Shown here: piece after piece, positions 21,821 through 46,410 of the stretch
Numbering within the stretch: the stretch's first letter is position 1
How the letters are laid out: each line of letters starts with the position of its first letter
Assembly (NCBI GenBank): GCA_041663425.1
Contig: JBAYMS010000002.1
Coordinates: forward strand, 2,076 to 66,075
DNA: 64,000 nt
DNA from: Candidatus Omnitrophota bacterium
Lineage (GTDB): Bacteria; Omnitrophota; Gorgyraeia; 2-01-FULL-45-10
Direction of reading: 5' to 3'
Position numbers and translations under genes: made by a program
The notes under the pieces: generated by a model
What the model saw: only the letters and a program-made list of their open reading frames with translations
The model's database searches: none
Told to the model about the DNA's origin: nothing

Positions 21821-22807
21821 ATGAATATAAGAGAACTGGCAAGGTTAGTAGGCGGGGCTATAGAAGGTGATAGCGATATTGACATAATAGGGGTAAGCGG
21901 CATAGAAACCGCTAAGTCGGGCGATATGGCGTTCGCGCTTAGCGAAGAAAGGCTGGCAGGCGCCGAGAAAAGCAAGGCCTCCTGTATATTGACAGATAAA
22001 ACCATAAGAAAATCTACAAAAACTCTTATACGGGTAAAAAACCCTAAACTATCTTTTCTTATTAGCAGCAATATATTAAATGTCCCACAGGTCCGGGAAT
22101 CATTTGTGCACTCGGCAGCTACGGTATCTGATAAAGCATGTCTCGGGGAAAACGTCTGGATCGACTCTGGCGTTAGAATAGAAGAGGGCGTGGTGATCGG
22201 AGATCATGTGATCGTAGAGTCTAACTCCGTGATAAAGAAAAATTGTGAGCTGGGTTCGTATTGTCATATCTATCCAAACGTTACATTATACGAAAATACA
22301 AAGCTACAAAAAAATGTGATCTTACATAGCGGCGTTGTGATCGGCTCAGACGGATTTGGTTATGTAAAAGATAATGGTAAGATATATAAATTTCCACAGC
22401 TTGGCAAAGTTATAATAGAAGACGACGTTGAGATCGGAGCTAATACAACCATAGATAGGGGATCCTTGAGCGATACTGTGATCGGCTCAGGCACGAAGAT
22501 TGACAACTTATGCCAAATCGCCCATAATGTAAAAATAGGGAATAATATGCTGATGGCTGCGCAATGCGGTATTTCCGGCAGCACAACTATAGGAAGCGAT
22601 GTGACGATGGGCGGGCAGGCAGGTGTAGTCGATAATGTTACGATAGGCGACAATGTAATTATAGGTGCTAAAAGCGCGGTTATAGGCAATGTAAAAAGTG
22701 ATTCAGTCCTCTGGGGCATCCCAGCCAGACCGATCGCTCAAACGAAAAGGCAGATGGCTGTTTTGTCATGGTTAGCTAAAAATTTTAAAAAAATTAAAAC
22801 GCATTAA
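21821..22807 (+). CDS. lpxD: UDP-3-O-acylglucosamine N-acyltransferase
   Basis: 328 aa; left-handed beta-helix hexapeptide repeats; N-terminal IRELA...IIGVSGIE LpxD domain. Confidence 0.85.
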
Positions 22808-22958: not shown

Positions 22959-23098
22959 TAATTACCGCTAATGGTTAGAATTTGTTTGTTTACTCAGGTT
23001 ATTTCGCTATAATAGAAGCATGTGTAAATAGAGAATCTCTCTTTATGCGGCATGAGAGATATTTTAACCATAATAAATCTAAAACAGAAGAGAATCGT

Positions 23099-24055
23099 AT
23101 GAACATGAAAAACTTTTTACGGCAGTTTGTGCCGTTGGTTACTCTGGCGTTATTCTTATCGACTTCTTCACTCGCAATAGCCAGCGAAGAAAGTAAGCAA
23201 AAGCAGAGAGAGGAATTACAGAAGAGTTTTGAATGGTGGCCTACCGATGCTCAGCCTGCTCCGGTGAAAGACGAGAAGCGCGGAGGGTACTGGTGGTGGC
23301 CTACAACGCCCGGCAAGATTAAGCCCTGGGGAAACCGGGGATATGTCTATGTGTACAAGATTATTTATGACTATAAAGCAGAAGAACTTCCTCCGCCAAA
23401 ACCGCAGGAGTTAAGGCAGTCTTTGCTTATCAGGAAAATAATTAAAAATGTTAAGATCTATTTCGATTACAATAAATCCGATCTGCGTGATGACGCTGCC
23501 AGTATTTTAGAGAACGCGGTAAGCATGCTGAACAAAAATCCGGAAACATCTATTTTAATAACCGGCAATTGTGATATCCGCGGTTCTGAGACATATAACG
23601 ATAAGCTCGGTAAGCAGCGCGCCGCATCTGTGAAAAATTTCATGTCCAATAATGGTATACCCGAAGAGAGGATCAAGATCATAAGCCGCGGCAAGCTGGA
23701 CGCAGTGGCTCCGGTTGCCGATCTCGTAGGTATGCAGAAAGACAGAAATGCCCAGTTTGTTATAGCCGTGGTAGAAGAGGCAATGCTTCCTGCTCCTGAG
23801 GCAGAGAAAATAGAACAGGCGAAGCCGATAGAGGAAGGTAAATACCTGGTCGAAGAGCAGCAGCAGGTTGTCTCCGAGGTAAAGGTATCTCAGAAAGAAT
23901 ATATTATCCAGAAAGACGACTCACTCTGGAAGATAGCTAAAAAAGAGATGGGCAGCGGAAATCGCTGGAAATATCTGTATGAATTAAATAAAGACAGGAT
24001 CAAGGATCCTAATAAACTAAAAGCAGGCCAGAAGATCATTATACCTGTTGAATAG
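23099..24055 (+). CDS. OmpA-family peptidoglycan-binding protein with C-terminal LysM domain
   Basis: Start chosen at MNMKNFLRQFVPLVTLALF (signal peptide); OmpA_C motif (TGNCDIRGSETYNDKLGKQRAASV); LysM (YIIQKDDSLWKIAKKEMGSGNRWKYLYELN...AGQKIIIPV). Confidence 0.8.
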   Translation: MNMKNFLRQFVPLVTLALFLSTSSLAIASEESKQKQREELQKSFEWWPTDAQPAPVKDEKRGGYWWWPTTPGKIKPWGNRGYVYVYKIIYDYKAEELPPPKPQELRQSLLIRKIIKNVKIYFDYNKSDLRDDAASILENAVSMLNKNPETSILITGNCDIRGSETYNDKLGKQRAASVKNFMSNNGIPEERIKIISRGKLDAVAPVADLVGMQKDRNAQFVIAVVEEAMLPAPEAEKIEQAKPIEEGKYLVEEQQQVVSEVKVSQKEYIIQKDDSLWKIAKKEMGSGNRWKYLYELNKDRIKDPNKLKAGQKIIIPVE

Positions 24056-24283: not shown

Positions 24284-24466
24284 CTACTCCTCCTTTGTTG
24301 CTTCTACGACCGGCGAAACTGCCGTATCGTTATTCACCGCTTGAACAGGGACCTCCCCTGCAAGCGCGTTCTTCTTATCTAATTTACGCTGCATCTTTTC
24401 TTCTTTTTTCTTTTTCTTTGCCTGTTCTCTTTTGAATTTTTGATATGAATAATTATCTCTGGCCAT
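24284..24466 (-). CDS. Small lysine-rich basic protein (60 aa), unknown function
   Basis: AAAGGAGG RBS 7 nt upstream of the ATG ([32 protein letters not shown]...); its stop lies 1 nt before the zinc-ribbon ATG in a different frame. Confidence 0.4.
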
Positions 24467-25457
24467 TAGAGCCTCCTTTTTTGGACTTCTTGGCAAGCCT
24501 TGACAGGACGGCCATCTGCCTTTTGGCGTGAGCTATAGGCCTTGCAGGAATACCCCAGATTACTGATCCGCTTTTTACATTGCCTATAACCGCGCTTTTA
24601 GCACCTATGGTTACATTGTCACCGATCGTTACGTTGTCGACTATGCCCGCTTGCCCTCCCATTGTGACATTATTGCCTACAGTAGTGCTGCCTGATATGC
24701 CGCACTGCGCCGCCATCAGGAAATTTTTTCCTATCTTGACGTTGTGGGCGATCTGGCATAAGTTGTCGATCTTCGTGCCCGAGCCGATGATGGTATCTCC
24801 TAAAGACCCCCTGTCTATGGTGGTGTTTGATCCGATTTCTACATCATCTTCGACAATAACTCTGCCAAGCTGTGGGAATTTATATATCTTACCATTGTCT
24901 TTTACATAACCAAATCCGTCTGAGCCGATCACAACGCCGCTATGTAAGATCACATTTTTTTGTAGTTTTGTATTTTCATAAAGCGTTACATTGGGGTAGA
25001 TATGGCAGAAGGAGCCTATGGAGCAGTTCTTCTTTACCACGGAATTGGATTCTATTATCACATGGTCTCCCAGCTCTGCGCCTTCCTCTATAGTGACATT
25101 TGGCCCTATCCATACGTTTTTTCCTATATTAGCAGAATCTGAAACCGTAGCCATGGGGTGTATGAACGATTCCCTGTCTTTCGGTGCATTAAACGTGTTG
25201 TATATAATAAGGAAGGAGAGTTTCGGGTTGGTTACTCTTATGAGAGTTTTGGATGATTTCCTTATGGTTTTATTCGTCAATACGCATGAAGCGCTGCTTC
25301 TTTCGGCTCCTGCAAGCTTGTCTTCATCCATCGCAAATGTGAGATCGCCTGATTTAGCTTTTTCTATGCCGCTTAATCCGATGATGTCGATATTATCGTT
25401 GCCTTCTACAAAACCTTCTATAAGCTGTGCCAGTTCTCGTATTTTCATAATCTCCAC
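24453..25457 (-). CDS. lpxD: UDP-3-O-acylglucosamine N-acyltransferase, second inverted paralog
   Basis: 334 aa, about 80% aa identity to the + strand lpxD; the central part is nearly identical at nucleotide level; basic C-terminal tail [12 protein letters not shown]. Confidence 0.85.
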
Positions 25458-25741
25458 AACACCTTTCTTGCGCTGATAGATTATCTATGGAGAATTTGCC
25501 GGATCCTTCACAGGGGGTTTCGGAATTATTTTACGCAGGTGACGCAGCAGTGGCCGGCTTGTTTAAGGCGAGGTGCCGGTGAACGTTACAGTATGTCGAG
25601 AAATTATATATACTGAGTTGACGTTTACAGCTGGTGAGCCTGCAGAATCTGCGTTTTTTGTTGGATTTAACCACTTTTGCCATATATCAGTATATCACGT
25701 ATGGGCGTATTAAGATACATATTTAAAATCTTATTTTTTTC

Positions 25742-25769
25742 TTGATTTTTTGCAGGTAAGTGGTATAAT
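25742..25769 (+). promoter_or_regulatory. Putative sigma70 promoter (TTGATT-16-TATAAT) for the Ehr-type operon
   Basis: TTGATT followed by a 16-nt spacer and TATAAT; it is followed at about 25838-25890 by a stem-loop (AACCTTTATTGG...CCAAGAAAGGTT) and a T tract before the RBS. Confidence 0.35.
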
Positions 25770-25904
25770 AACATCTCAACAATGTTATACTGGTGCCGAG
25801 TTTGAAGGTGGGTCTGGAATTAAAGAAAAGAGAAACCTTTATTGGACTGATAATGTCAGCCAAGAAAGGTTTTTTTATTTTTTTATAGGAGCTCTTAGAT
25901 CTAA

Positions 25905-27701
25905 ATGCTGAACTTTTTACCGAAACAACTTTTCATGATCGATCCGCTTGCGATATTTTTTCTTATCGTTATAGGCCTCGTGTGCATTCCATCGGCAATA
26001 TTTTCGATAGGGTATATGCAGGGCGAGAGTGCTAAGAAAAAAGTGATCGGATGGTCACTTCTCGTGATATTTACCATGTCCATGTGTATGGTAGTGACTT
26101 CAGGCAATCTTCTCTCGTTCCTTATATTCTGGGAAATTATGTCCCTAGCCTCTTATTTCCTGGTAGTTTTCGATTTTAAGCATGAAAAAGCTGTGCGCGC
26201 CGGCACCATCTACCTTATCATGACGCATATAGGAACGGCCTGCATCATGGCCGCGTTCTTTATGCTGTATAATTGCGCGGGCTCATTCGATTTTAATGTA
26301 TTAAAACAGGCCGTTACTTCATTGCCTCCCCAGGTTGCAAATATAGTATTTTTACTGTTGTTCGTAGGCTTTGCCACAAAGGCCGGCGTAGTTCCTATGC
26401 ATGTCTGGCTTCCTTACGCTCATCCGGAAGCCCCCAGTCATATTTCAAGTATAATGTCGGGTGTTATGATAAAGATCGCGATATACGGTATGATACGATT
26501 TTTTATAACGCTATTGGGTCCCGGCCCGGCATGGTGGGGTGTCCTTATTATGGGATTCGGGATGATCTCCTGCCTAGTCGGCGTGATATATGCCCTCATG
26601 GATCAGAAGCTTAAAAAATTGCTCGCTTATTCGAGCGTCGAGAATATAGGTATAATACTTCTCGGTGTGGGGGCTGCGATGTTCTTCGGATCTATCGGCA
26701 TAGCTGCCGTTGCCGTGCTAAGTCTATGTGCCGGACTTTACCACATCGTAAATCATGCGCTCTTCAAAGGGCTGCTATTCCTTTGCGCGGGAAGCGTGCT
26801 TAAAACGACCCTTTTGCATGACATGGAGAAGATGGGCGGGCTCATTAAAGCCATGCCCGCAACCGGATTGCTATTTTTAGTCGGCGCTATGGGTATTTCT
26901 GCGCTGCCTCCATTTAATGGCTTTGTCAGTGAATGGCTTACGTTCCAAGCTTTCTTTTCCGGCGTATTGCAGTCTCAGGGTGGTGTGAAATTTTTCATGG
27001 TCCTGTCCGCAGCTGTGCTCGCATTGACGAGCGGGCTTGCGGCTGCATGTTTTGTCAAAGCGTTCGGCATTGCTTTTCTCGCCATGCCGCGAAGTGCACG
27101 CGCTAAGGAAGCTAAGGAAGCCAGCCTGTCTATGAGGGCGGGTATGGCTATACTGGCAGCGGGGGTTGTTTTATTCGGCATAGGTGCAGGTTTTATAGCG
27201 CCGCTTATATTCAATGTCGCGCGCGGTGTATTCAGCGCAGAAAGCATACAGGGATCTTTCTATTTTGTGTCAATCCTGCCTCCGGCCATCGCGATATTAA
27301 TGCTTGCGATGGGAGGCTTGATTTTTCTGTGGTTCAAATTCGGCCTGCGCACAAAACAGACTAGCTATAATACATGGGATTGTGGATATTACAACCTCAA
27401 CAGCCGCAATGAATATACCGGCACTGCTTTTTCAAAACCTTTCAGGATAGCCTTCAGCTTTTTTCTTCTGCCTTACCGTAAAAGTGAAAAGATAAGGGAC
27501 TCATTTTATCATGTGCGCAAATTTACTTATGAGACGCATACCACAATGGTGTTTAAGAACTATTTTTATCAGCCGTTGACACGCTTTGTTTACTCGACGG
27601 CATCAAAGATGAAAAAACTGCAGCCAGGAAGTATTCACCTGTATATTTTTTACATTTTTATTACCCTGGCAATTTTACTGGCAGTCACGGCGGCATTTTA
27701 A
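25905..27701 (+). CDS. Ehr/Hyf-type complex, NuoL/HyfB-like antiporter-like membrane subunit
   Basis: 598 aa; Mrp-antiporter-like motif WLPYAHPEAPSHISSIMSGVMIKIAIYGMIRF. Confidence 0.8.
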   Translation: MLNFLPKQLFMIDPLAIFFLIVIGLVCIPSAIFSIGYMQGESAKKKVIGWSLLVIFTMSMCMVVTSGNLLSFLIFWEIMSLASYFLVVFDFKHEKAVRAGTIYLIMTHIGTACIMAAFFMLYNCAGSFDFNVLKQAVTSLPPQVANIVFLLLFVGFATKAGVVPMHVWLPYAHPEAPSHISSIMSGVMIKIAIYGMIRFFITLLGPGPAWWGVLIMGFGMISCLVGVIYALMDQKLKKLLAYSSVENIGIILLGVGAAMFFGSIGIAAVAVLSLCAGLYHIVNHALFKGLLFLCAGSVLKTTLLHDMEKMGGLIKAMPATGLLFLVGAMGISALPPFNGFVSEWLTFQAFFSGVLQSQGGVKFFMVLSAAVLALTSGLAAACFVKAFGIAFLAMPRSARAKEAKEASLSMRAGMAILAAGVVLFGIGAGFIAPLIFNVARGVFSAESIQGSFYFVSILPPAIAILMLAMGGLIFLWFKFGLRTKQTSYNTWDCGYYNLNSRNEYTGTAFSKPFRIAFSFFLLPYRKSEKIRDSFYHVRKFTYETHTTMVFKNYFYQPLTRFVYSTASKMKKLQPGSIHLYIFYIFITLAILLAVTAAF

Positions 27702-27704
27702 ATT

Positions 27705-28589
27705 ATGATAAAATTAAACGATATGATAATGGTAGTGGTGGAAGGGCTGCTGCTTATACTCATAGCCCCTCTTATAAGCGGGGTCATAAGGAAAATAAAG
27801 AATGTATTTCGTATGCGTAAAGGGCAGAGCGTGCTGCAGCCTTACTATAATATCCGGAAGCTTTTTTTAAAGGATGAGGTTATCTCAAAGAATGTTTCAT
27901 GGATATTTTACGCAGCGCCAGTTATAGTTTTTGCCGGAAGCGTAACAGCTCTTCTCATGGTCGTCGCGATAAATCCGAGGGCCATCACAGAAAATACAGC
28001 AGCTTTATTCATAGCCGTATTTTTCGTTCTGGGGATCGGCCGTTTCTTTTTAGCGCTTGCCGGGCTCGACGCCGGCTCTTCGTTTGGAGGCATGGGCTCG
28101 TCGCGGGAAATGTTCATCTCAAGTTTTGTCGAACCTGCTATTTTTATAACGGTATTTGTTTTGTGTATGGGCGGGGGAGGGGTTTACAGGGTCTCTGCGC
28201 TTCTGGCGGGAGCCGCTCTTTTTATGGCAGTGATCGCTGAGACTTCACGTGTCCCGGTGGACAACCAGGAGACGCATCTCGAATTGACCATGATACACGA
28301 AGCAATGGTCCTTGAATATTCCGGGAGATCTCTGGCGCTCATAGAATTGGCTTCTCATATAAAGCAGATAGCGCTTTTTACAGTACTTTCATGGTACCTC
28401 TTTCCATATACGATAATGGGAATGAGTGGATATCTGTCGTTCCCTGTAAAGATAGCAGCTATTTGTCTGGCGGTCGCAGTGGTCGAGATATCGGTAGCCA
28501 AAATGAGGTTATTCAGGGCGGTAGATTTTTTAAGCTTTTCTTTTTTCATAGCGATTGTTGCTTCGATCGCAGCTATATTGGGGTTATAA
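27705..28589 (+). CDS. NuoH/HycD-like membrane subunit
   Basis: 294 aa; conserved EAMVLEYSGRSLAL (E..EYSG) NuoH/HycD signature. Confidence 0.8.
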   Translation: MIKLNDMIMVVVEGLLLILIAPLISGVIRKIKNVFRMRKGQSVLQPYYNIRKLFLKDEVISKNVSWIFYAAPVIVFAGSVTALLMVVAINPRAITENTAALFIAVFFVLGIGRFFLALAGLDAGSSFGGMGSSREMFISSFVEPAIFITVFVLCMGGGGVYRVSALLAGAALFMAVIAETSRVPVDNQETHLELTMIHEAMVLEYSGRSLALIELASHIKQIALFTVLSWYLFPYTIMGMSGYLSFPVKIAAICLAVAVVEISVAKMRLFRAVDFLSFSFFIAIVASIAAILGL

Positions 28590-28592
28590 ATT

Positions 28593-29231
28593 ATGATACT
28601 CAGTTTCTTATTAAGCGGTTTTCTTATCGTAACATTTCTTCTGGTGGTAGCCAAAAGAATTACCGCGCTTGTCCGCGCCTTCAGGATGCAGTCGGTATTC
28701 CTTTTTCTGTATACGCTTTATATGGCGCTCAATCAGCGTCATTTTGAGTTATTTATTGTATGCGGACTGGTCTTTGTTCTTAAAGCTGTGATCATACCAT
28801 TTGTCCTTCTGCGTATTACGCGCCGGATAAACGTGGAAGAAGATCTGGGGCTTCTGATAAATCCGCAGGTATCGCTCGTTATAGCGCTTGCCTTCGTATA
28901 TCTTTCATATCTATTTGCGCATAATGCCATGGGGCTTAAAAATCTAGCGGAATCCGCGGCCTTCATAGCCTCGATCACTACCGTGTGCATAGGTTTCTTC
29001 ATTATGGCCAGCCGGATGAAAGCGCTCAGCCAGATAGTGGGGCTTCTAGTTATGGAAAACGGTATATTTCTTGCAGCTGCATCGATAGCGGGAGGGATGC
29101 CGTTTTTCGTAGAAATAGCGTTATTCTTCGACGTCTTTGTATTTGTTATCATTGTCGAGGTTTTTGTGTATAAGGTAAACAGGCTTTTTACGCATATCGA
29201 TACATCTAAGATGCAGTCACTTAAAGGATAA
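28593..29231 (+). CDS. HyfE-like (NuoK-related) small membrane subunit
   Basis: 212 aa, about 6 TM helices; position and size match HyfE/MbhG-type subunits. Confidence 0.6.
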   Translation: MILSFLLSGFLIVTFLLVVAKRITALVRAFRMQSVFLFLYTLYMALNQRHFELFIVCGLVFVLKAVIIPFVLLRITRRINVEEDLGLLINPQVSLVIALAFVYLSYLFAHNAMGLKNLAESAAFIASITTVCIGFFIMASRMKALSQIVGLLVMENGIFLAAASIAGGMPFFVEIALFFDVFVFVIIVEVFVYKVNRLFTHIDTSKMQSLKG

Positions 29232-29233
29232 TA

Positions 29234-30697
29234 ATGTTAATAGCGCTGATAATTTTAATACCGGTTTTTTTGACGATAGCTTCACTATTCATCAGGAAGG
29301 TGAAGCCGGCCGGGATGGTCAACGTATTCGGTTACGCGGCGGTTCTGGCAGTATCTGTTCTGCTATTAAGGGATTTCGTCGCCAAAGGAAATGCGCCCAT
29401 AAATTTGTGGGGATGGTTTTATGTTGATGCGCTCAGCGTATTTTTCCTGCTGACCACCGCTGTGGTTAGTTTTGCGGCGAGCGTGTATTCGATAGGGTAT
29501 ATAAACTTCGAGGTAGAAGAGGGGAAAATATCTGTCCGCAAAGCATGCGCTTATTTCCAATTATTTAATTTATTTTCTCTCGCAATGGTTATGGTGCCCC
29601 TTCTTAGCAACCTGCCGCTGGTCTGGATAGCTATCGAAATGACGACGCTCATCTCAGCTTTCCTTGTGGGATTCCACAATGTAAAGGAATCGATCGAGGC
29701 GGCCTGGAAATATATAATTATTTGTTCAGTTGGCATAACCTTTGCGCTTTTAGGAATAATATTTTTCTATTACACTTCATCGAAAGATGCGGGCGTGAGC
29801 AGCATGGAATGGCTTAGTATGTTCTCCGGCTCCGGCGCGTTTAATCCAAAAGTTGTGAGGCTTGCTCTTGTCTTCATATTTGTAGGATACGGAACAAAAG
29901 CAGGGCTTGCGCCGATGCATAACTGGCTTCCCGATGCGCACAGCCAGGCACTTTCTCCTATAAGCGGACTCTTATCCGGCGTGCTTATAAAAATATCTTT
30001 GTATGCCATATTACGTTTTGTGATGCTGGCAAATCTCTCAGTCGGTTACGCATACAGCGCGAAACTTTTTATACTTTTTGGTTTGGTCTCGATCGCTATC
30101 GCCGGAGCCTTTATACTTGTCCAGAAGGACCTTAAAAGATTATTTGCTTATTCAAGCGTTGAGAACATAGGGCTTATATCTTTAGGTTTTGGGTTCGGGC
30201 CTTTCGGTGGTATAGTCGCCGGACTTCTTCAGGCGTTTAACCACGCTGTAACCAAGGCGCTTATGTTCTTCTGCGCCGGAGAAGCTGTGAGAGTTTATAA
30301 AACCAACAATATGAACCAGATGCAGGGCATGATAAAGGTGATGCCGTTTACAGGTACGGCGATGTTTCTCGGGCTCTTTGCGCTCGTCGGGATGCCGCCT
30401 TTCTCTATATTTATAAGTAAGGTGGCGATATTCATAGCCGCATTCCAGGGAAAACACTATTTTGCCGCTTCGGTCATGTTCATCTTTATAGCGCTTGCTT
30501 TTGCGGGGCTGCTCTATCATATAAGCAGAATAATTTTAAGGAATAAGCCTCAGGCTATGCCCGTCCAGAAAGAACCTTTAAGTGCAAAAATAGCTTTTAT
30601 ATTTTTAGGAGTTTTCATATTAGGATTCGGGTTAGCGATACCTCGGGTGTTTTTTGAATTGCTTTTAAATTGTCAGCAGCTTATTTTGGGTAAATAG
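29234..30697 (+). CDS. NuoN/HyfF-like antiporter-like membrane subunit
   Basis: 487 aa; WLPDAHSQALSPISGLLSGVLIKISLYAILRF motif. Confidence 0.8.
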   Translation: MLIALIILIPVFLTIASLFIRKVKPAGMVNVFGYAAVLAVSVLLLRDFVAKGNAPINLWGWFYVDALSVFFLLTTAVVSFAASVYSIGYINFEVEEGKISVRKACAYFQLFNLFSLAMVMVPLLSNLPLVWIAIEMTTLISAFLVGFHNVKESIEAAWKYIIICSVGITFALLGIIFFYYTSSKDAGVSSMEWLSMFSGSGAFNPKVVRLALVFIFVGYGTKAGLAPMHNWLPDAHSQALSPISGLLSGVLIKISLYAILRFVMLANLSVGYAYSAKLFILFGLVSIAIAGAFILVQKDLKRLFAYSSVENIGLISLGFGFGPFGGIVAGLLQAFNHAVTKALMFFCAGEAVRVYKTNNMNQMQGMIKVMPFTGTAMFLGLFALVGMPPFSIFISKVAIFIAAFQGKHYFAASVMFIFIALAFAGLLYHISRIILRNKPQAMPVQKEPLSAKIAFIFLGVFILGFGLAIPRVFFELLLNCQQLILGK

Positions 30698-32281
30698 ATG
30701 AATAATTCTGAGTATATAAAAAACATTTTAAATTCTGAAAATATCGAAGCGCTTAATTTGTCCATGGCGTATGAGGATGAGTTATATATAAAAGCATCCG
30801 GAGCGGATTTTGGCAGAATATGTAAGGCGCTGCACAAACGCCTTGATTCTCCGGTAATGACATTTTTCGCTGAGGATATGCGCCTGACATCAGGCGTATT
30901 CGTATTGACATGTGTTTTTCTAAGCATTCAGAGCCGTTCCTGGATATTTATCCAGCAGGATATTCCGCAGGACGATCCTAAATTTACTTCGCTCGCAAAA
31001 GATATTTATTCCGCCAGTCTTTTCGAGCGGGAGATGCGGGAAATGTTCGGCATAAAGCCCGAAGGCAATCCTGATGCCAGAAGCCTCAGACTTCATGATG
31101 AGGTATGGCCGAAAGGATACTATCCGCTGCGTAAAGATTTTGTTCCCCCGAAGGAGAAACCTGACGGGAGCGCGCAATATCAGTTTAAACGCGTAGACGG
31201 CGAAGGGATATTTGAAGTTCCGGTCGGGCCAGTCCACGCGGGCATTATCGGCCCTGGCCATTTCAGGTTCAGTGTGGCAGGTGAGCCCATTGTAAATTTA
31301 GAGACACGTCTTGGCTGGACACACAGAGGTGTGGAGAAAATTCTCGAAGGCAAAGGGCTTGATGAAGCCGTAAATATAGCAGAATGCATAAGCGGTGATA
31401 CCGCGTTTGGCTACAGCCTTGCCTTTTGCAAAAGTGCGGAAAAGATACTCAGTATAGAAGTCCCCGTCAGGGCACAGCTCCTACGCGTCATGTTTTTAGA
31501 AATGGAACGGCTATATAATCATGCAAATGACATGGGCGGTATCGCCCTGGATGTCGGTTTCAGCTTTCCGGCGCAGTTTGCGAGCCTGATCAAGGAAGCT
31601 ATCCTGCGGCTTAATGAGGATCTGACCGCCTCGCGATATCTTAAAGGTGTAAATGCAGTCGGCGGGGTGAAGAAAAATATAAGCAGGGAGAAACTTAAAA
31701 TCGTTCCCGAGCTTCTTGAAAAAATAGAAAAAGATCTTCTCGCTATGGAGGATATGCTATTTTCGAGCATATCTTTTATGGACCGTTCTGATGCCACGGG
31801 AATTTTACGGACAAAGACGGCGCGCGACCTTGGCATAACCGGAGTTGCGGCACGCGCGAGCGGCATAGGGCTGGACGTGAGAAAAGTTTTTGCGGATATT
31901 TATAATAAATTTTCTTTTACGATGCCGAAAGAACATGCAGGCGATGTAACCGCCCGCCTTAAGATCCGGTGTTCTGAAGTTAAGGAATCGATATCGATAA
32001 TAAAACAATGTCTGGGCAGGTTAGATAACTGTGATTCACGAATCAGGGATATAGTTCCGGAAAGAGAAGGCGCGGCGCTGGGCTGTGTTGAAGCATGGCG
32101 TGGAGCGGTGCTTGTCTGGACCAGGCTGGATGTCAAAGGAAAGATCGTCAGATGTAAAATAACGGATCCTTCTTTCCATAACTGGGATGGGCTTTCTTTT
32201 GCGGTGCTGGGAAATATTATTCCAGATTTTCCGTTATGCAATAAAAGTTTCGACTTGTCATATTCGGGTAACGACCTATGA
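30698..32281 (+). CDS. Fused NuoC-NuoD / HycE-like 'large subunit' homologue lacking the NiFe-ligand cysteines
   Basis: 527 aa; GPVHAGIIGPGHFRF...WTHRGVEK core is present; the N-terminal RxCGxC position reads AECISGDTAFGY (both Cys replaced) and the C-terminal DPCxxC position reads DPSFHNWDG (no Cys). Confidence 0.8.
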   Translation: MNNSEYIKNILNSENIEALNLSMAYEDELYIKASGADFGRICKALHKRLDSPVMTFFAEDMRLTSGVFVLTCVFLSIQSRSWIFIQQDIPQDDPKFTSLAKDIYSASLFEREMREMFGIKPEGNPDARSLRLHDEVWPKGYYPLRKDFVPPKEKPDGSAQYQFKRVDGEGIFEVPVGPVHAGIIGPGHFRFSVAGEPIVNLETRLGWTHRGVEKILEGKGLDEAVNIAECISGDTAFGYSLAFCKSAEKILSIEVPVRAQLLRVMFLEMERLYNHANDMGGIALDVGFSFPAQFASLIKEAILRLNEDLTASRYLKGVNAVGGVKKNISREKLKIVPELLEKIEKDLLAMEDMLFSSISFMDRSDATGILRTKTARDLGITGVAARASGIGLDVRKVFADIYNKFSFTMPKEHAGDVTARLKIRCSEVKESISIIKQCLGRLDNCDSRIRDIVPEREGAALGCVEAWRGAVLVWTRLDVKGKIVRCKITDPSFHNWDGLSFAVLGNIIPDFPLCNKSFDLSYSGNDL

Positions 32282-32802
32282 GCTTTAATATAATTAAAAA
32301 CGGTATTAAAAAAGGCAGAGTTACTATAAAACTTGATCCGGCAGACGTTTTAGTGCCGCCGGAGATAGAAAAAATAGGGCATCAGCTCAGGAAAGCGGTC
32401 CATGCGAAGTTCGGCAGATCGTTCCATATCCGCGAAGTGGATACAGGCTCCTGCGGTGCCTGTGAGTCTGAAATAATTGCGTGTTCAAATCCATTGTATG
32501 ATATCCAGCGTTTCGGAATAGATTTCGTCGCTTCGCCGCGCCACGCGGACGCTCTTCTGGTTACGGGACCTGTTTCCAAAAATATGGAACTCGCGCTTAA
32601 AAAAACTTACGAAGCTATGCCCGAGCCTAAGCTTGTAATTACCCTCGGAGATTGCGCCAAAGGCGGCGGTTTATTCAAAAACTCTTATTATGCATGCTCC
32701 GGCGTGGAAAATGTCCTGCCTGTTATTCTGCACATCCCCGGTTGCCCTCCAAGCCCGCTGGCTATTATGAAAGCACTGCTGGCATTTCTGAAATCAGCAT
32801 AA
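32278..32802 (+). CDS. NuoB/HycG-like [4Fe-4S] small subunit
   Basis: 174 aa; four Cys (GSCGACESE, GDCAKGGG, IPGCPP) consistent with a proximal cluster site. Confidence 0.8.
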   Translation: MSFNIIKNGIKKGRVTIKLDPADVLVPPEIEKIGHQLRKAVHAKFGRSFHIREVDTGSCGACESEIIACSNPLYDIQRFGIDFVASPRHADALLVTGPVSKNMELALKKTYEAMPEPKLVITLGDCAKGGGLFKNSYYACSGVENVLPVILHIPGCPPSPLAIMKALLAFLKSA

Positions 32803-32854: not shown

Positions 32855-33634
32855 ATGCCTATTTCACATGCGTTAATATTAGGAATTATTCAGGGGCTGA
32901 CCGAAGTTTTCCCTATATCGAGCTCAGCACACCTTACTCTTATTCCATGGTTTTTGAAATGGAATTATCAGGGGTTGTCTTTTGATGTGGCGCTTCATGT
33001 GGGAACGGCGCTGGCATTAGTCGTGTATTTTTTTAAGGACTGGATAAAAATAATCTCATCCGCTTTTACAAAAGACAAAACCAAAAAAAATAACATACTC
33101 TGGTATATGGTCCTGGCGACAATACCCGGCGCATTGATCGGTCTGATCTTTGAGGATGCGGCGGAAACCTATTTTCGCGCCCCTCTCTTAATGGCAGCTA
33201 CTTTGATCGTCTTTGCGATAATCCTCTGGCTTGCCGATCATTTAGGCAGAAAAGATAAAGAGATGGATGCGATGGATCTTAAGACGGCGGTTATCATAGG
33301 TTTTGCGCAGGCTCTGGCGATAATTCCGGGGGTGTCGCGTTCGGGTATAACAATTACAGCAGGGCTGGCCAAGGGATTTTCCCGCCGTTCCGCTGCCAGA
33401 TTTTCGTTTTTACTGGCGACACCGATCATTGTTGCGGCCGGTGTATTAAAGCTTCCCAAACTTCATGCTTCAGATCTGACCGCAGCATTCTGGATAGGTG
33501 TGTTAGCGTCGGCAGTAAGCGGATATCTGGGAGTAAAGTTTTTGCTTAATTTTGTAAGAAAATCCAGCCTCAATATATTTGTATGGTATCGCATAGCGGT
33601 GGCATTTATTATTATAGCTGTGTTTTTTAAATAA
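32855..33634 (+). CDS. uppP: Undecaprenyl-diphosphate phosphatase
   Basis: BacA/UppP motifs ILGIIQGLTEVFPISSSAHL and PGVSRSG; 259 aa. Confidence 0.85.
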   Translation: MPISHALILGIIQGLTEVFPISSSAHLTLIPWFLKWNYQGLSFDVALHVGTALALVVYFFKDWIKIISSAFTKDKTKKNNILWYMVLATIPGALIGLIFEDAAETYFRAPLLMAATLIVFAIILWLADHLGRKDKEMDAMDLKTAVIIGFAQALAIIPGVSRSGITITAGLAKGFSRRSAARFSFLLATPIIVAAGVLKLPKLHASDLTAAFWIGVLASAVSGYLGVKFLLNFVRKSSLNIFVWYRIAVAFIIIAVFFK

Positions 33635-33652: not shown

Positions 33653-34294
33653 GTGGAATTTATTAAAAGTTTACTCGATCTCGCAATCCATTTTGATAAG
33701 CACCTGAATGCGATGATCCAGAGCTTCGGGGGCTGGTCCTATCTGGTGCTTTTCGTGATCATTTTCGCAGAAACGGGCCTGGTCGTTACGCCGTTCCTCC
33801 CGGGAGATTCGATGATATTTGCCGTAGGGACATTCGCCGCAATGGGATCGCTGGACGTAGCGTGGCTTTTTGCAGTGCTTGTGAGCGCCGCGATCATCGG
33901 AGACAGCGTAAATTATGCGATCGGAAAATTTATCGGCGAAAAGGCTTTTCACATGAAGAATTCCAAAATATTTAAAAAAGAATACCTCGACAAGACCCAT
34001 AAATTTTATGAAAAATACGGCGGCAAAACTATAATACTGGCGAGATTCGTCCCGATAGTGCGGACGTTTGCGCCGTTCGTCGCCGGCGTAGGCATTATGA
34101 GTTATAGAAAATTCTTTGCCTATAATATTATCGGCGGTATTTTGTGGGTAGCAGTATTCCTCTACGGCGGATATTTTTTCGGTAACATGCCAGTCATAAA
34201 AAATAATTTTTCGATAGCGATATTCGCGGTAATAATACTCTCTATATTACCCATAGGGGTCGAATATTGGAAACACAAAAGAACGAAAAAATAG
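33653..34294 (+). CDS. DedA/SNARE-associated family membrane protein
   Basis: VTPFLPGDSMIFAVG and IARFVPIVRTFAPFVAG DedA signatures; 213 aa. Confidence 0.8.
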   Translation: MEFIKSLLDLAIHFDKHLNAMIQSFGGWSYLVLFVIIFAETGLVVTPFLPGDSMIFAVGTFAAMGSLDVAWLFAVLVSAAIIGDSVNYAIGKFIGEKAFHMKNSKIFKKEYLDKTHKFYEKYGGKTIILARFVPIVRTFAPFVAGVGIMSYRKFFAYNIIGGILWVAVFLYGGYFFGNMPVIKNNFSIAIFAVIILSILPIGVEYWKHKRTKK

Positions 34295-35757
34295 TTTTTC
34301 CGGAAGATCTTAAAGAGCAATTTAAAGATCTTGTGAATTCGCGCTGCGGATTATATTTTAAAGACTACGACCTGAAAGACCTCGAGTTCGCCCTGACAAA
34401 CCGCATAAAAGAACTCGGCCTTGATTCAGCGCATGCTTATTACAACATACTGACATTATCCGAAAAGAAAGAGGATGAATTCAGGGAACTTCTCAATCTT
34501 CTCACCGTAAAGCATACCTACTTTTTCAGGAATGAGCCGCAGTTCAAAGTCCTGAAAGAAAAAATACTCCCTGATCTGATGTCTCGCAAGAAGACTATTC
34601 GTATATGGAGCGCTGGCTGCGCTACCGGCGAAGAGCCGTATTCCATTGCCATGATAATAAAAGATATGTTATCCGCCTATGAAGGATGCAGCGTCGAGAT
34701 AGTTGCTACCGATGTGTCTACGAAAGCCATTGAGAATGCGCAGCGCGGTATTTATGGTGCAAATTCTATGAGGCTCGTTGATGATGAGCATAGAAAAAAG
34801 TATTTTACCGAAGAACACAATCCGTCGCTTGGCCTAAGATATGCGATAAAAGACGCGATAAAAAATATGGTAAATTTCGCATATTTCAATCTGATGGAAA
34901 ATACGTATCCCGGAGATTTCGATATAATCTTCTGCCGTAACGTCGTTATATATTTCGAACTTAGCACTACCATTTCCGTAATGAATAAATTTGCTGATAG
35001 TCTTAAGGAGGATGGGTATCTGTTTATAGGTTATTCAGAGAGCCTTCAGTTCATATCCGACAAATTTAAGATGGAAAGCCGGGAGGATGCTATTTTTTAT
35101 ACGAAGGCCGGGGATGTCAGGATCTCGTCGTGTGTCGCAGGCTACAAAGGGCCGAAGCCGCGGAAAATGGAAAGCATTATCGAGGAAATCTCCGAAGCTG
35201 AGGTTGAGGCCGGTTCGCAGGAAAAATGGGCTAAAGTAATAACATCGGCTAAGCTTAAAGATATCCTTGTGCAGGCGATCGAAGCTATGTTTTTAAAGAA
35301 ATATCAGGAAGTGCTGAGCCTCGCAGAAGCCGGCCGCCTTATTGATGGGGATGCCGTAGAGTTTTATTATCTGGCCGCCGAGGTCAATTTAAATCAGGGT
35401 CATTTCGCCGATGCTAAAAAGAATCTCGATATAATCCTGGAAAAGAATGCTCTCTTCGCTCCCGCTTACTATCTTTTCGGGTCGCTATTCATAGAAGAGG
35501 GCAGGGCTGAGGATGCGGAAAAGAGTTTCAGGAAGGCTTTATACCTTGATGGCAAGTTCTTGCTGGCACATTTTGGGATAGCCAATATTTACAGGGATTT
35601 AGGCAGGATACACGATGCTATACGCGCATACAGAAATACCCTTAATATTTTGTCAAAATGTAAATCATATGATATAATTGCATACAGTGGCGGTTTTAAC
35701 GCAACGACTCTTGCAAGTGTCTGTAGGAATAACTTGGAGCGTTTAAAAACGGCGTAG
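34267..35757 (+). CDS. cheR: CheR-type chemoreceptor methyltransferase with C-terminal TPR repeats
   Basis: CheR SAM-binding IRIWSAGCATGEEPYSIAMI...CRNVVIYF; TPR-like repeats in the last 150 aa; 496 aa. Confidence 0.8.
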   Translation: METQKNEKIVFPEDLKEQFKDLVNSRCGLYFKDYDLKDLEFALTNRIKELGLDSAHAYYNILTLSEKKEDEFRELLNLLTVKHTYFFRNEPQFKVLKEKILPDLMSRKKTIRIWSAGCATGEEPYSIAMIIKDMLSAYEGCSVEIVATDVSTKAIENAQRGIYGANSMRLVDDEHRKKYFTEEHNPSLGLRYAIKDAIKNMVNFAYFNLMENTYPGDFDIIFCRNVVIYFELSTTISVMNKFADSLKEDGYLFIGYSESLQFISDKFKMESREDAIFYTKAGDVRISSCVAGYKGPKPRKMESIIEEISEAEVEAGSQEKWAKVITSAKLKDILVQAIEAMFLKKYQEVLSLAEAGRLIDGDAVEFYYLAAEVNLNQGHFADAKKNLDIILEKNALFAPAYYLFGSLFIEEGRAEDAEKSFRKALYLDGKFLLAHFGIANIYRDLGRIHDAIRAYRNTLNILSKCKSYDIIAYSGGFNATTLASVCRNNLERLKTA

Positions 35758-35779
35758 CATCCTTAAATCAAGGAGCCTA

Positions 35780-36244
35780 GTGCACTTACTGACATTCCTT
35801 TTGGCGGAGAAGGAATACGCTGTTGACGTTGACAGCGTCCGCGAAGTAAGGCGTATAAAAACTATCATACCCATACCGAAGACTTTAGACTTCGTTGAAG
35901 GTGTCGTAAGTCTTCGCGGCAATGTCATTCCCATAATAAATTTACGCAAAAAGCTCGGCCTTCCCGGCCTGCAAAAATCAAATCTCAACAGAGTCCTGAT
36001 GGTGGAATTGAATGACCATATTATCGGCATTGCTGTCGATAATGTTATTGGGGTTGTGTCTGTTGATGGATTAAATATCGAATCTCCCGACGAACTTCTT
36101 AAAGATGCCGCATATCTTAAAGGTGTTGCTAAATCCGGTCACCGTCTTATCCTGATAATAGATATTATGAGCTTATTGTCGGGCGAAGAGACTCTGGGGA
36201 TTTCTGATATACACAAAAAGGTTGAGATCCGAAAGAAGGCCTGA
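35780..36244 (+). CDS. cheW: CheW coupling protein
   Basis: 154 aa CheW-like domain (EYAVDVDSVREV...LRGNVIPIINL). Confidence 0.8.
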   Translation: MHLLTFLLAEKEYAVDVDSVREVRRIKTIIPIPKTLDFVEGVVSLRGNVIPIINLRKKLGLPGLQKSNLNRVLMVELNDHIIGIAVDNVIGVVSVDGLNIESPDELLKDAAYLKGVAKSGHRLILIIDIMSLLSGEETLGISDIHKKVEIRKKA

Positions 36245-36249
36245 AATTT

Positions 36250-36768
36250 ATGGATGAGCAGGATAAAGTAATAATAGAGGTCAGCGAAGAAGAATTTGAG
36301 GCCATGAGAGAGGTGAAGAAGACCGTCAGAGTGCTTTCTTTCTCTCTGGGCAGTGAGCATTATTGTATTGATATAACTGATGCCAAGGAGGTTTTCCGGC
36401 CTTCCGCCATTACCAAGGTGCCGAATGCCCCGGCTTTCATTTTCGGGATCACCAATATTCACGGTGAAATAATACCTTTGATAGATATACGGTATTTTCT
36501 GGGCTTAGCCTCAAAGGAAGGGCTTGGCTCAACAAAGGTTATAGTTACTGATGTTATGGCAAGCCATGTAGGTGTTGTTGTCGATGAAGTTAATGAGGCC
36601 ATTGACATCGAGGAGGATTCGATACAGCCGCCGCTTGCTACTATCAAAGGCTCGCTTGCTGTTTTTACAAAAGGCCAGGTCCAGATCGGGAACGATATAA
36701 TAGTTTTGTTGGATCTGAAAAAAATACTGAATTGCAAAGAAATGGAGAACTTAAAAAAAGGAGTATGA
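36250..36768 (+). CDS. cheW: CheW-like coupling protein (second copy)
   Basis: 172 aa; acidic N-terminal tail plus CheW domain ([12 protein letters not shown]...[11 protein letters not shown]). Confidence 0.75.
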
Positions 36769-36769
36769 G

Positions 36770-38650
36770 ATGGAGACCGCAGGACAAGTCAGGATTAGCA
36801 TAAAGACTAAGTTGATTGTTATCTTTTTAGCCATAGCGCTTATACCGCTTGCGATTACAGGCTACATAGGGTATTCATCGGCTAAGGCGGCCCTGGAGAA
36901 AAGTTCCTTTGAAAGCCTGAAAGCTATATCGGCCGCTAAGGAAGAATCTCTTATAAGATATATCAGGACTAAAGTAAAGGTCACAAAAGGTTTTGCGAGT
37001 GATATTTATATACGCGAAACGCTTGAAAAGATAGAGCAAGGTGGTCCAGACGCTTTAAGACTTGCGGGTGAACTCACAAAATATCTTGCCGAAGAAAAAG
37101 AACCTGTTGATGGCGATATAGACGTAACGCATGTAATCAATACGGATGGCAAAATAATAGCGTCCACAATAGCTGCGCGCATAGGCGAAGATGCTTCCCA
37201 GACAGATTATTTTACTGAAGGTAAAAAGGGGCTGTATATCAAAGATGCGTATCTTTCTACCGATAACGGTAAAGAGTCTTTCTCTGTTGCCATTCCCCTG
37301 AAAAAGAGAGATGGTGGCCAGATTGTGGGCGTGCTGGTCAACCGTTATCAAACAACGGAACTTAACAAAATACTTTCCGACAGGGAGGGTATGGGCGAGA
37401 CGGGAGAGACTTATATAGTTAATAAAGATAGTTATATGATCACCGCTTCAAAATTTATAAAAGATGCATTTCTTAAACAGAAGGTTGACACCGATCCTGT
37501 CAAATTATACCAATCCGACAAACAGACTATGTCGGGTGTTTATAAAGATTATCGTGGCCATGTAACCTTAGGTGCTTCACATGGAGCTATTTTTGACAAA
37601 GAGTTTGGTCTTGGATGGGTGGTCTTGGCAGAGATAGATGTAAATGAGGCGTTTGGCCCGGTAGCGAAGCTGCGAAGCATGATACTTTTAATGATACTGC
37701 TTGTTGCAATCACTATTACTTTTGTGGCTATCGTTATATCAGAGACTATGGTCAGACCAATAATTACATTGACTCAAGCAGCTAATAAAGCGGCTGGAGG
37801 CGATCTTACGGTAGCTATGTCGATAAAAAGTAATGATGAGATAGGGGTGCTGGCGAATAGCTTCAACATGATGGTCAGGAATTTAAGCGAAATATTATCA
37901 AAAGCTAAAGAAGCTGTCGGCCAGGTGACTTCCGGTTCAACCGAGATACTGTCTGCGAGCCAACAGCAGGCTTCCAGCGCACGCGAACAGTCGTCGGCTA
38001 TAAATGAAACCACTTCTGCGGCTGCAGAGTTGTCAAAATCAGCTGAGCAGATAGGTGATAGTATAAAACAGGTTTCTCAGTCCGCTATTCATGCTTTGGC
38101 GGGCATGAGCAAGATTAAAGATGCTATAGGCAAGACGAGCGACAAGATAACCTCCTTGAGTGAAAAATCTCAGCAGATAGGCAAGATCACGGAGCTTATA
38201 AATGATGTTGCCGATCAGACAAATCTTCTTGCCGTTAACGCTGCTATAGAAGCGGCAAGGGCAGGTGAACACGGGCGGGGATTTACAGTGGTTGCGGATG
38301 AGATACGCAAACTCGCCGACTCGACTTCTAAATCGACCAAAGACATTACTGCTCTGATCGAGATCATCCAGCACGAGATGTCAAATGCGATAATGGCAAT
38401 GGAGCAAAGCATAATAAGTGTGAATGAGGAAGTTGCGTTATCCCAGGAATCGGCGGATAGCGCTAAAGAGATAGCGATGGGGGCCGCGCAGCAGGTGGCT
38501 GGTTCAAGACAGATCGCAGAGGCCATGACGAGCATAAACGAGGCTATGAAACAGATCTCTGAGGGTGCCAGCCAGGCTCAGGCAGCCGCCAAGCAGCTGA
38601 ATCTTTTAGCCAGCGAGGTCAGAGCGATCACCATTAAATTTAAGGTATAA
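36770..38650 (+). CDS. Methyl-accepting chemotaxis protein with periplasmic Cache-like sensor and HAMP
   Basis: 626 aa; TM1, periplasmic domain of about 270 aa, TM2, HAMP, MCP signalling domain ([31 protein letters not shown]). Confidence 0.85.
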
Positions 38651-38657
38651 AACTTAG

Positions 38658-40757: not shown

Positions 40758-40779
40758 AAACTTACGAGAGGGGTAGTCT

Positions 40780-41151
40780 ATGGCAAAAAAAGTGCTTTTA
40801 GTAGAGGATAGTCCGTTAGACGCGGCCATGATAAAAGATATGATGTCAGAAGACGGGTTTGAGATGTATGTAGCTAACACAGTAAAAGAAGGATACGAAA
40901 AGGCTGTTCAGGTAAAGCCCGATCTGATATTGTTGGACCTGCTTTTGCCCGATGGTAATGGATTTGACCTGTGCGCGCGCATAAGAAAAGAAAGCGGTCT
41001 TGGCAATAATGTCCTGATAGTTATTGTAAGTATAAAAAGCGACAGGCAGGATATTGAAAAGGCATTTGAGTCTGGTGCTGACGATTATGTAATAAAGCCG
41101 CCCGCGCCCGAATTCCTTCTAAAAAAAATAAGACTATACATGCATCCGTAA
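40780..41151 (+). CDS. cheY: CheY-like single-domain response regulator
   Basis: 123 aa REC (KVLLVEDSP...LILLDLLLPDGNG). Confidence 0.8.
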   Translation: MAKKVLLVEDSPLDAAMIKDMMSEDGFEMYVANTVKEGYEKAVQVKPDLILLDLLLPDGNGFDLCARIRKESGLGNNVLIVIVSIKSDRQDIEKAFESGADDYVIKPPAPEFLLKKIRLYMHP

Positions 41152-41160
41152 CGGAGAGAA

Positions 41161-46345: not shown

Positions 46346-46373
46346 TATACATATATATATTATATGTAATATT

Positions 46374-46402
46374 TTGACTAACTATATGTTATAGGGTATA
46401 CT
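46374..46402 (+). promoter_or_regulatory. Putative sigma70 promoter (TTGACT-17-TATACT) for the orphan HK core
   Basis: TTGACT 46374-46379, TATACT 46397-46402, ATG at 46411. Confidence 0.35.
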
Positions 46403-46410
46403 TAACACTA

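Follow-up and report, generated by a model that had tools for sequence, protein, structure and literature searches.

The Ehr operon and its relatives

We analysed a 64,000-nucleotide (nt) stretch of DNA from a Candidatus Omnitrophota bacterium (GCA_041663425.1, contig JBAYMS010000002.1, positions 2,076-66,075 of the forward strand), referred to here as the window. It contains an operon (25905-32802) of six plus-strand open reading frames (ORFs) that very probably encodes an energy-converting hydrogenase-related (Ehr) complex, EhrA-B-C-D-L-S. The products have 598, 294, 212, 487, 527 and 174 amino acids (aa), and adjacent ORFs are separated by 0-3 nt or share a 4-nt overlap. ORF calling with Pfam and NCBIfam assignment reproduces exactly the gene content and coordinates given in the initial annotation, a model's reading of the letters and their translations. 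The identical six genes were also called independently on identical sequence in two public assemblies. They are as follows:

25905-27701, + strand: ehrA, HyfB/HycC/NuoL-like antiporter-type subunit, 598 aa (NCBIfam PRK06521, 627 bits)
27705-28589, + strand: ehrB, NuoH/HyfC/HycD-like membrane anchor of the peripheral arm, 294 aa (PF00146, E = 3.3e-29)
28593-29231, + strand: ehrC, HyfE-like membrane subunit, 212 aa, C-terminal half NuoK-like (PRK11492, E = 2e-23, below cutoff; PF00420 weak)
29234-30697, + strand: ehrD, HyfF/MbhH/NuoN-like antiporter-type subunit, 487 aa (PRK06458, 430 bits)
30698-32281, + strand: ehrL, fused NuoC and NuoD/HycE-like large subunit, 527 aa (PF00329 and PF00346)
32278-32802, + strand: ehrS, NuoB/HycG/MbhJ-like small subunit, 174 aa (PF01058, E = 7.3e-29)

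Because all equivalog scores of the six proteins lie below the curated NCBIfam cutoffs, none of them qualifies as an orthodox Hyf or Nuo subunit. The one model whose cutoff is exceeded is PRK06411, a broad NuoB subfamily model, with EhrS (126 versus 116). Every subunit that has a solved match finds its best relative in Escherichia coli formate hydrogenlyase or in the membrane-bound hydrogenase (MBH) of Pyrococcus furiosus. The hyf operon of E. coli is ordered hyfB-C-E-F-G-I, and the window genes have the same order by their NCBIfam names; subunit homology and these names agree with the group-4, Hyf-like gene order that had been proposed. Unlike formate hydrogenlyase-1 (FHL-1; HycBCDEFG, 7Z0S) and Hyf, the operon encodes a large subunit without NiFe ligands, and the window scans found no HycF/HyfH, HycB/HyfA ferredoxins, FdhF, hyp or hycI nearby. 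Five Pfam scans over the 64 kb detected no HycF/NuoI-type ferredoxin, hyp/hyc, NuoE/F or formate dehydrogenase among window ORFs of at least 150 aa (shorter ORFs were unscanned), which upholds the earlier statement that no NuoI/HycF or hyp/hyc genes are adjacent. There is likewise no molybdopterin gene among the window ORFs of this size.

With complex I (Nuo/Nqo, NDH-1, Fpo) the operon shares NuoB/C/D/H, K-like and L/M/N-like subunits, the lack of a NiFe site and a charged axis. Complex I differs in having at least 11 core subunits including NuoA/I/J, to which NuoE/F/G are added for NADH oxidation, and in having the quinone ligands His38/Tyr87 and a tandem CC (PMC7684303). Among window ORFs of at least 150 aa, the Pfam scans found no nuo-like gene beyond the six, and none for NuoA/E/F/G/I/J. 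The complex cannot act as a canonical NADH:quinone oxidoreductase.

Ehr complexes are group-4-related assemblies without Ni/Fe ligands (PMC6349859, PMC10284858) that are close to group 4f hydrogenases (PMC10284858). They have been described in Geobacter, Margulisbacteria and Saganbacteria, Elusimicrobia and Nitrospira (PMC7894505, PMC6349859, 10.1101/765248, PMC10284858), and a 2025 survey reports that about half of Nitrospirales genomes carry Ehr, stating its function to be unknown (PMC12342949). The assignment of the window operon to this class, as a complex that does not bind Ni-Fe, is supported by the ligand loss described below together with the published definition of Ehr (PMC6349859, PMC10284858, PMC12342949). 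The class is already named, widespread and repeatedly reported, and the Omnitrophota copy is a new member of it. The literature that we found on Ehr consists of genomic and proteomic mentions, with no functional or structural study among them.

Geobacter Ehr, for which the complex was first named, has a NuoL-like EhrA, a HyfE-like EhrC, EhrL and EhrS (GSU0739-0745 in G. sulfurreducens; PMC7894505, PMC8691401), the same kinds of subunit as the window operon when the two are compared by published names rather than by direct alignment. The window copy differs from it in belonging to a distinct Omnitrophota/Saganbacteria/Planctomycetales clade, and its lineage-specific features are a Gly in place of the relay Glu of the large subunit, a minimal EhrS and a short EhrA N terminus. 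Database names for 10 family representatives (cluster look-up) are generic NuoC or hydrogenase-3 names, and none is 'Ehr'.

Former active site, cluster site and membrane subunits

EhrL matches the solved E. coli large subunit HycE (7z0s_E) with E = 4.5e-65 (phmmer), MbhL with E = 2.1e-33 and MbsL (6u8y_L) with E = 2.2e-24. In the phmmer alignment to HycE, the L1 ligand motif DRVCGICGFAHS pairs with EhrL ECISGDTAFGYS, placing Ser232 and Thr235 at the two Cys positions, and the L2 motif SLDPCYSCTD pairs with SFDLSYSGND, placing Ser521 and Gly524 there. Every NiFe ligand Cys has therefore been lost, as the initial annotation had asserted. Group-4 [NiFe] hydrogenases (Hyc/Hyf, Ech, Mbh, 4f) carry these Cys in L1 (RxCGxCxxxH) and in L2 (DPCxxCxxH/R or an equivalent). 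Its L1 comparison was correct about the Cys but off by one residue in register (AECISGDTAFGY), which leaves the conclusion unaffected. The peptide DPSFHNWDG, which it had taken for the DPCxxC position, aligns instead to HycE RAATYANWPTL, about 30 residues upstream of the real L2; both quoted peptides occur in the translation, but the motifs assigned to them were incorrect in detail. What is left of L2 is FDLSYSGNDL at the C terminus, the final ten residues of EhrL, and the protein ends at the equivalent of the mature HycE C terminus with no protease-cleaved extension. As judged from these alignments, EhrL cannot bind Ni-Fe. The relevant sites map to the window as follows:

31226-31270, + strand: EhrL beta1-beta2 loop GPVHAGIIGPGHFRF, residues 177-191 (Gly185 at the MbhL E21 position, Ile184 at Nqo4 His38)
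31382-31417, + strand: EhrL L1 remnant ECISGDTAFGYS, residues 229-240 (Ser232 and Thr235 at HycE Cys positions)
32249-32275, + strand: EhrL L2 remnant FDLSYSGND, residues 518-526 (Ser521 and Gly524 at HycE Cys positions)
32452-32745, + strand: span of the EhrS [4Fe-4S] ligand Cys C59, C62, C126 and C156 (alignment to MbhJ/HycG)

The replacement residues are strongly conserved. Among 118 homologues at 55-100% identity, the motifs E(C/R)(I/V)SGD(T/S)AF.. and CNKSF(D/N)LSY.GNDL are near-invariant, and the four Cys are absent from these 118 close homologues and from about 170 distant ones. A search of 1.84 billion representatives returned 872 proteins at E < 1e-30, and we examined the best 128 full-length matches. 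About 100 of these 128 are ligand-less at 33-46% identity and share the SGD / NKSFNLSYSGNDL signature, and in about 25 the full set of four Cys is present, with the frame unchanged (ER.CG.C ... NKSFELCY.C.DR). A set of 30 diverse ligand-less proteins shows no variation at N515, K516, S517, S521, Y522 and D526, and S232, G233, D234 and R468 are near-invariant there. Second-sphere residues of the old active site are also retained, namely Arg468 (MbhL R320) and D/N519 (MbhL D372). Near-invariance of the replacement motifs indicates a working site under purifying selection, not a decaying one, and by this measure the former active-site pocket is among the best-conserved parts of EhrL.

An AlphaFold2 model of EhrL has a predicted local distance difference test score (pLDDT) of 89.5 and a predicted TM-score (pTM) of 0.92. 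The best fold match of this predicted structure is HycE 7z0s_E (TM-score 0.94), and E. coli NuoCD matches it with a TM-score of 0.90. Residues 178-183 of the beta1-beta2 loop form the sole segment with pLDDT below 50 and the only disordered part of the model. The quinone ligands of Thermus thermophilus Nqo4 align to Ile184 in the same loop (His38) and to Gly233 outside it (Tyr87); the loop alignment is ungapped, which makes the His38 equivalence approximate.

We give almost no weight to the idea that the operon is a misread hydrogenase, a true complex I or a decaying pseudo-operon. The EhrL sequence is publicly named 'NADH-quinone oxidoreductase subunit C' (NCBI) and 'Ni,Fe-hydrogenase III large subunit/component G' (IMG), and NuoD models match it with E = 4.7e-63, as such a reading would have it. 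However, its scores are 213 for NuoD against a cutoff of 360, 157 for NuoCD against 840 and 24 for another NuoD/NuoCD/hydrogenase equivalog against 600, and the operon has six genes only, with no NuoA/E/F/G/I/J. The Cys are absent from the aligned ligand columns, NuoD scores fall far below cutoff and there is no 14-subunit operon. The four Cys are missing in the correct frame from a full-length protein whose model superimposes on HycE, and identical sequence in independent assemblies argues against a sequencing or frame error. EhrL is 100% identical to a protein from a public Candidatus Omnitrophota metagenome-assembled genome (MAG). The operon's ORFs are intact and show translational coupling; they are conserved from phylum to phylum, and the replacement motifs hardly vary. 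The hydrogenase, complex I and pseudogene readings are thus excluded by the cutoffs, the HycE alignment, and the conservation of motifs and cassette.

The Cys-bearing relatives resemble EhrL in sequence (36-42% identity), ABCDLS gene order, beta1-beta2 loop, absence of a cleavable C-terminal extension and a common C-terminal frame, NKSF.L.Y...D(R/L). They differ from it in having the four Cys (ER.CG.C..., NKSFELCY.C.DR) and in lying outside the ligand-less clade. Six of 10 of their small subunits carry CxxCxxCxxxC, and eight of the 10 are extended at the N terminus by 116-151 aa. These nearest relatives are probably group 4f [NiFe] hydrogenases (Ehf), a subgroup name that we take from the literature.

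EhrS most closely matches MbhJ (E = 9.3e-35) and HycG (E = 8.6e-34). Its residues C59, C62, C126 and C156 all align with the proximal-cluster ligands of these two proteins, in agreement with the initial reading of four Cys for one [4Fe-4S] cluster, and they show the CxxC spacing of hydrogenases where complex I has a tandem CC. On this evidence, EhrS is predicted to retain one [4Fe-4S] site. The four Cys are present in all eight window-clade loci with a complete small-subunit ORF; in locus L010 this ORF ends at the contig edge. EhrS is a minimal form (about 170 aa) without a ferredoxin-like extension.

Three states of the small subunit are found across the family: one of about 170 aa that has the four Cys, one extended N-terminally with CxxCxxCxxxC, and one in which the four Cys are replaced. 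The extended state is found in 13 loci (among them L016, L019, L029, L036, L042, L052, L054 and L072), where the small subunit has about 236-354 aa and the extension carries the ferredoxin-type CxxCxxCxxxC motif, twice in 8 of the 13. By their motifs, these proteins appear to be effectively NuoB fused to a HycF/NuoI-like relay domain. Small subunits from Acidobacteriota, Verrucomicrobiota and Thaumarchaeota have another Cys-rich N-terminal extension, without CxxCxxCxxxC. In at least eight loci (L037, L043, L049, L063, L065, L070, L078 and L084) the four cluster Cys are replaced, for example by DTDN, TCDD or SEGD; one such ORF is L065:11610-12122.

The membrane subunits also retain their characteristic residues. 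EhrA matches HycC (7z0s_C) with E = 1.6e-72 and has the NuoL-type C-terminal extension, and it carries the Lys of transmembrane helix (TM) 7 that HycC lacks. Local alignments, which we used to place the length difference since a global MAFFT alignment was uninformative, start EhrA at about HycC residue 72, leaving about 60 N-terminal residues absent. A longer ehrA upstream is ruled out, as the ORF begins at the first start codon past a stop. The small ORFs in 25458-25904 are not membrane-like and hence are no source of the missing N-terminal helices. In EhrA, Glu77 (TM5), Lys159 (TM7), His280/His284/Lys288 (TM11) and Glu343 (TM12) are at least 98% conserved in ligand-less relatives.

EhrB matches HycD (7z0s_D) with E = 4.3e-20 and also matches MbhM, and EhrD matches MbhH with E = 2.8e-41; a PDB sequence search with the HyfE-like EhrC gave no match. 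Conservation in ligand-less relatives is at least 90% for EhrB E143, E179, D186, E193, E199, E204 and E261, for EhrC E155 and D180, and for EhrD E135, K222, H337 and K341. These are charged residues that mark out the ion paths in membrane arms of the complex I type, and in both antiporter-like subunits they comprise the TM5 Glu, the TM7 Lys, the TM11 His/Lys and a TM12 Glu or Lys. By sequence, a charged axis is intact through EhrA, EhrD, the NuoH-like EhrB and the NuoK-like EhrC. Of the earlier description of the complex as an ion pump that cannot bind Ni-Fe, the second part is borne out, and the pump part is a prediction from these conserved charged residues.

Family distribution and possible modes of action

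When one genome per species was scanned, the cassette turned up in at least 597 species, both bacterial and archaeal. The matches listed include Omnitrophota, Saganbacteria, Nitrospirota, Acidobacteriota, Verrucomicrobiota, Chloroflexota and Methylomirabilota/Rokubacteria, as well as Bacillota, Actinomycetota, Patescibacteria and several archaeal groups. The order ABCDLS or SABCDL is near-universal in the 80 loci that we retrieved, which contain 75 ligand-less large subunits (in 73 loci) and 10 with four Cys.

A neighbour-joining tree rooted on HycE-type sequences, which is unbootstrapped and therefore indicative, places all 171 ligand-less sequences, EhrL included, in one clade and all 32 Cys-bearing sequences outside it; Geobacter EhrL was not included. 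Within this clade, which also contains Nitrospirota loci, the window group is monophyletic and comprises Omnitrophota, one Saganbacteria (L011) and one Planctomycetales sequence. It has been hypothesised in the literature that such complexes are evolutionary intermediates linking hydrogenases with complex I. To the extent that the sequences can tell, a single derived ligand-less clade beside Cys-bearing hydrogenases fits independent loss as well as it fits an intermediate. Two Nitrospirota MAGs (L045:4742-19811 and L076:1-14009) have a tandem pair of complete ABCDLS cassettes, whose large subunits fall in separate sub-clades (SSSG and STSG types).

Only two Pfam families recur among the 150 genes nearest to the related cassettes, an ArsR/SmtB-type regulator (11) and Usp (4). 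A gene for an ArsR/SmtB-family helix-turn-helix protein lies within about 110 nt of the cassette, or overlaps it, in 14 of about 80 loci. These 14 represent several phyla, and 11 of them are ligand-less; three further loci have the gene 0.3-2.9 kb away. It is frequently co-directional and 1-5 nt upstream of the cassette. Loci of this kind include L025, L026, L038, L044, L050, L051, L073, L077, L079 and L004 (for example L050:2272-2622, L025:4030-4392 and L004:12214-12543). The gene also adjoins the Cys-bearing cassettes L059, L081 and L083, and it is absent from the window operon. This neighbour may be a sign of induction in response to metals, persulfides or redox state.

Some ArsR-family regulators sense persulfides, and their frequent position beside the relatives' cassettes favours a reading that we nevertheless find very improbable, in which Ehr is an MBS/Mbx-like sulfane-sulfur (polysulfide) reductase and the proximal [4Fe-4S] cluster is itself catalytic. 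MBS (formerly Mbx, Pyrococcus furiosus, 6U8Y) is like EhrL in that it derives from a hydrogenase and has lost NiFe chemistry, and neither MbsL nor EhrL has equivalents of MbhL E21 or Nqo4 His38/Tyr87 (PMC7684303). However, MBS catalysis needs a three-Cys proximal cluster that results from a shortened loop (PMC7684303), whereas EhrS has four Cys with MBH-type CxxC spacing. MBS keeps two of the four NiFe Cys and EhrL none, and MBS has 13 subunits including the MbsN relay and an Mrp module, in contrast to the six subunits of the window operon, which has no relay, no MbsN/HycF homologue and no Mrp subunit gene. The MbsL match is also much weaker than that to HycE.

A second alternative, which we consider quite unlikely, treats Ehr as a partner-dependent respiratory module. 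A separate dehydrogenase would feed electrons to Ehr (as in FDH-Ehr, with formate dehydrogenase and NuoE/F-like proteins), a membrane carrier would accept them and ions would be pumped. FDH-Ehr was put forward as a hypothesis for Margulisbacteria and Saganbacteria (PMC6349859), and a Saganbacteria locus (L011) belongs to the window clade. Growth of Geobacter on formate gives the highest abundance of its Ehr subunits (PMC7894505). On the other side, Fdh, molybdopterin and NuoE/F genes are missing among window ORFs of at least 150 aa and beside the cassette in three other Omnitrophota contigs (L003-L005), they are not enriched in the neighbourhoods of the related cassettes, and EhrS lacks the relay clusters to reach a docked dehydrogenase.

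Our tentative proposal is that Ehr works as a redox-linked ion translocator, for which we infer the path of the electrons, their donor, the coupling and the identity of the transported ion. The donor would be of low potential, most plausibly ferredoxin, and would dock directly on the small peripheral arm, as we propose from the lack of a HycF/NuoI relay subunit. The donor would reduce the single [4Fe-4S] cluster of EhrS, and the resulting change in charge or protonation could reach the remodelled, conserved polar pocket of EhrL (Ser232-Gly-Asp234-Thr235, Arg468 and Asn515-Lys-Ser...Ser521-Tyr-Ser-Gly-Asn-Asp526). From there it may be relayed via the mobile beta1-beta2 loop and the acidic EhrB TM5-6 loop into the charged axis of EhrB and EhrC, and the antiporter-like EhrD and EhrA would then move H+ or Na+. 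The reverse direction may also occur, with ion-motive force used to reduce ferredoxin.

Taken as a whole, an Ehr complex acting as a redox-linked ion translocator is our best overall explanation, with a rough probability of 45%. In its favour are the subunit homology and Hyf-like gene order, the near-invariant replacement motifs, the single ligand-less clade, the retained second-sphere and cluster-ligand residues, the conserved charges of the membrane subunits, the HycE-like model with its flexible beta1-beta2 loop, the conserved cassette order despite unrelated flanks, and the published descriptions of Ehr. Several observations weigh against it. The proton-relay Glu of the MbhL beta1-beta2 loop, E21 (PMC7684303, PMC8679088), aligns to EhrL Gly185. 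Gly occupies this position across the window clade and in the representatives P0213, P0259 and P0235, and Glu occupies it in all Cys-bearing loci and in all other ligand-less loci except L077. The quinone-ligand positions appear to be lost as well, and no acceptor-binding residue is recognisable in the EhrL sequence. No relay ferredoxin subunit and no gene for a redox partner was found among window ORFs of at least 150 aa, and no redox partner, Fdh or NuoE/F is enriched among the 150 nearest neighbours of about 80 cassettes. Finally, the loci with a cluster-less small subunit still carry the conserved EhrL pocket motifs and the membrane subunits. With at least eight lineages lacking FeS (iron-sulfur) ligands, the conserved core of the family cannot depend on electron transfer, and by their sequences these cassettes look like cofactor-free complex-I-like machines.

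The main rival explanation, ahead of the FDH-Ehr and MBS-like readings but in our judgement still somewhat unlikely, is a redox-independent cation/proton antiporter of the Mrp type. The hydrogenase arm would serve as a structural cap or as a regulatory plug that binds ions or protons, and the [4Fe-4S] cluster would have a structural role or, at most, gate transport as a redox sensor, with no net substrate turnover. The lineages that have lost both NiFe and FeS ligands while keeping cassette, pocket and membrane charges favour it, as do the lack of recognisable acceptor-binding residues and the want of an input module in the window or enriched near relatives. So do the replacement of thiolates by oxygen-donor residues (Ser, Thr, Asp, Tyr) and the ArsR/SmtB regulator beside many cassettes. 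Against an antiporter stand the strict retention of all four cluster Cys in the window clade and the 13 relatives that added a ferredoxin-like 2x[4Fe-4S] extension, which is sensible only with electron flow. In Geobacter, moreover, Ehr abundance responds to the electron donor (PMC7894505).

A bolder proposal, to which we assign a low probability, is that the NiFe pocket has been rebuilt as a site for a hard cation or proton, and that pocket-controlled ion translocation, not redox catalysis, is the conserved function of Ehr. The putative oxygen ligands would be Ser232, Asp234, Thr235, Ser521, Tyr522 and Asp526, with Lys516 and Arg468 near. FeS clusters would then be optional (none, one as here, or three elsewhere), and the cluster of the window clade would be a redox gate. 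If this proposal is true, Ehr complexes are widespread complex-I-like transporters that run without a chemical substrate.

Whichever of these explanations applies, redox-linked translocation included, Ehr is among the few complex-I-family machines without a known substrate (PMC12342949) and occurs in at least 597 species-level genomes. The family pattern, in which FeS content varies and the EhrL pocket stays invariant, constrains hypotheses of its function more than a single locus can. The finding may also bear on published inventories. In a survey of Omnitrophota, PF00346 served as the marker of 'respiratory complex I' (PMC10066038). EhrL matches this family, so some Omnitrophota respiratory chains may rest on Ehr, mislabelled and possibly counted as complex I.

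Genomic surroundings of the operon

Between the divergent lpxD gene and ehrA lies an unusually long, AT-rich non-coding leader of 447 nt (25458-25904). No riboswitch or other RNA element was found in it, and the Rfam matches in the entire window are four tRNAs. One promoter-like site is present upstream of ehrA:

25742-25769, + strand: promoter-like site, TTGATT, 16-nt spacer and TG-extended TATAAT (a consensus match alone; the region contains no more such sites overall than expected from shuffled sequence)

Envelope genes flank the operon on both sides. Upstream, two paralogues of an LpxD-like acyltransferase, at 21821-22807 (+) and 24453-25457 (-), lie around an OmpA-LysM gene (22982-24055). 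Downstream, a UppP gene (32855-33634) starts 52 nt past ehrS and is followed by DedA (33653-34294). These surroundings are not shared with other Omnitrophota loci: the three other contigs (L003-L005) have the six-gene cassette with wholly different flanks.

Near the start of the window are genes for NrdD and its radical-SAM activase (3367-6086) and for ThyX (2643-3395). By sequence, the NrdD/NrdG and ThyX genes are consistent with an anaerobic host. An ORF of 1132 aa at 6263-9661 (+) has no Pfam match at E <= 1e-5. Beyond DedA, a chemotaxis cluster (34267-42168; CheR-TPR, two CheW, MCP, CheA-CheY and CheB) is followed at 42194-47181 by a 1383-aa Cache/HAMP/multi-PAS histidine kinase and a second kinase. 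A cluster resembling those for type IV pili or type II secretion systems (ATPase, platform protein, pseudopilin and PilM/N/O) occupies 47976-56262, and the four tRNA genes lie at 57276-58872.

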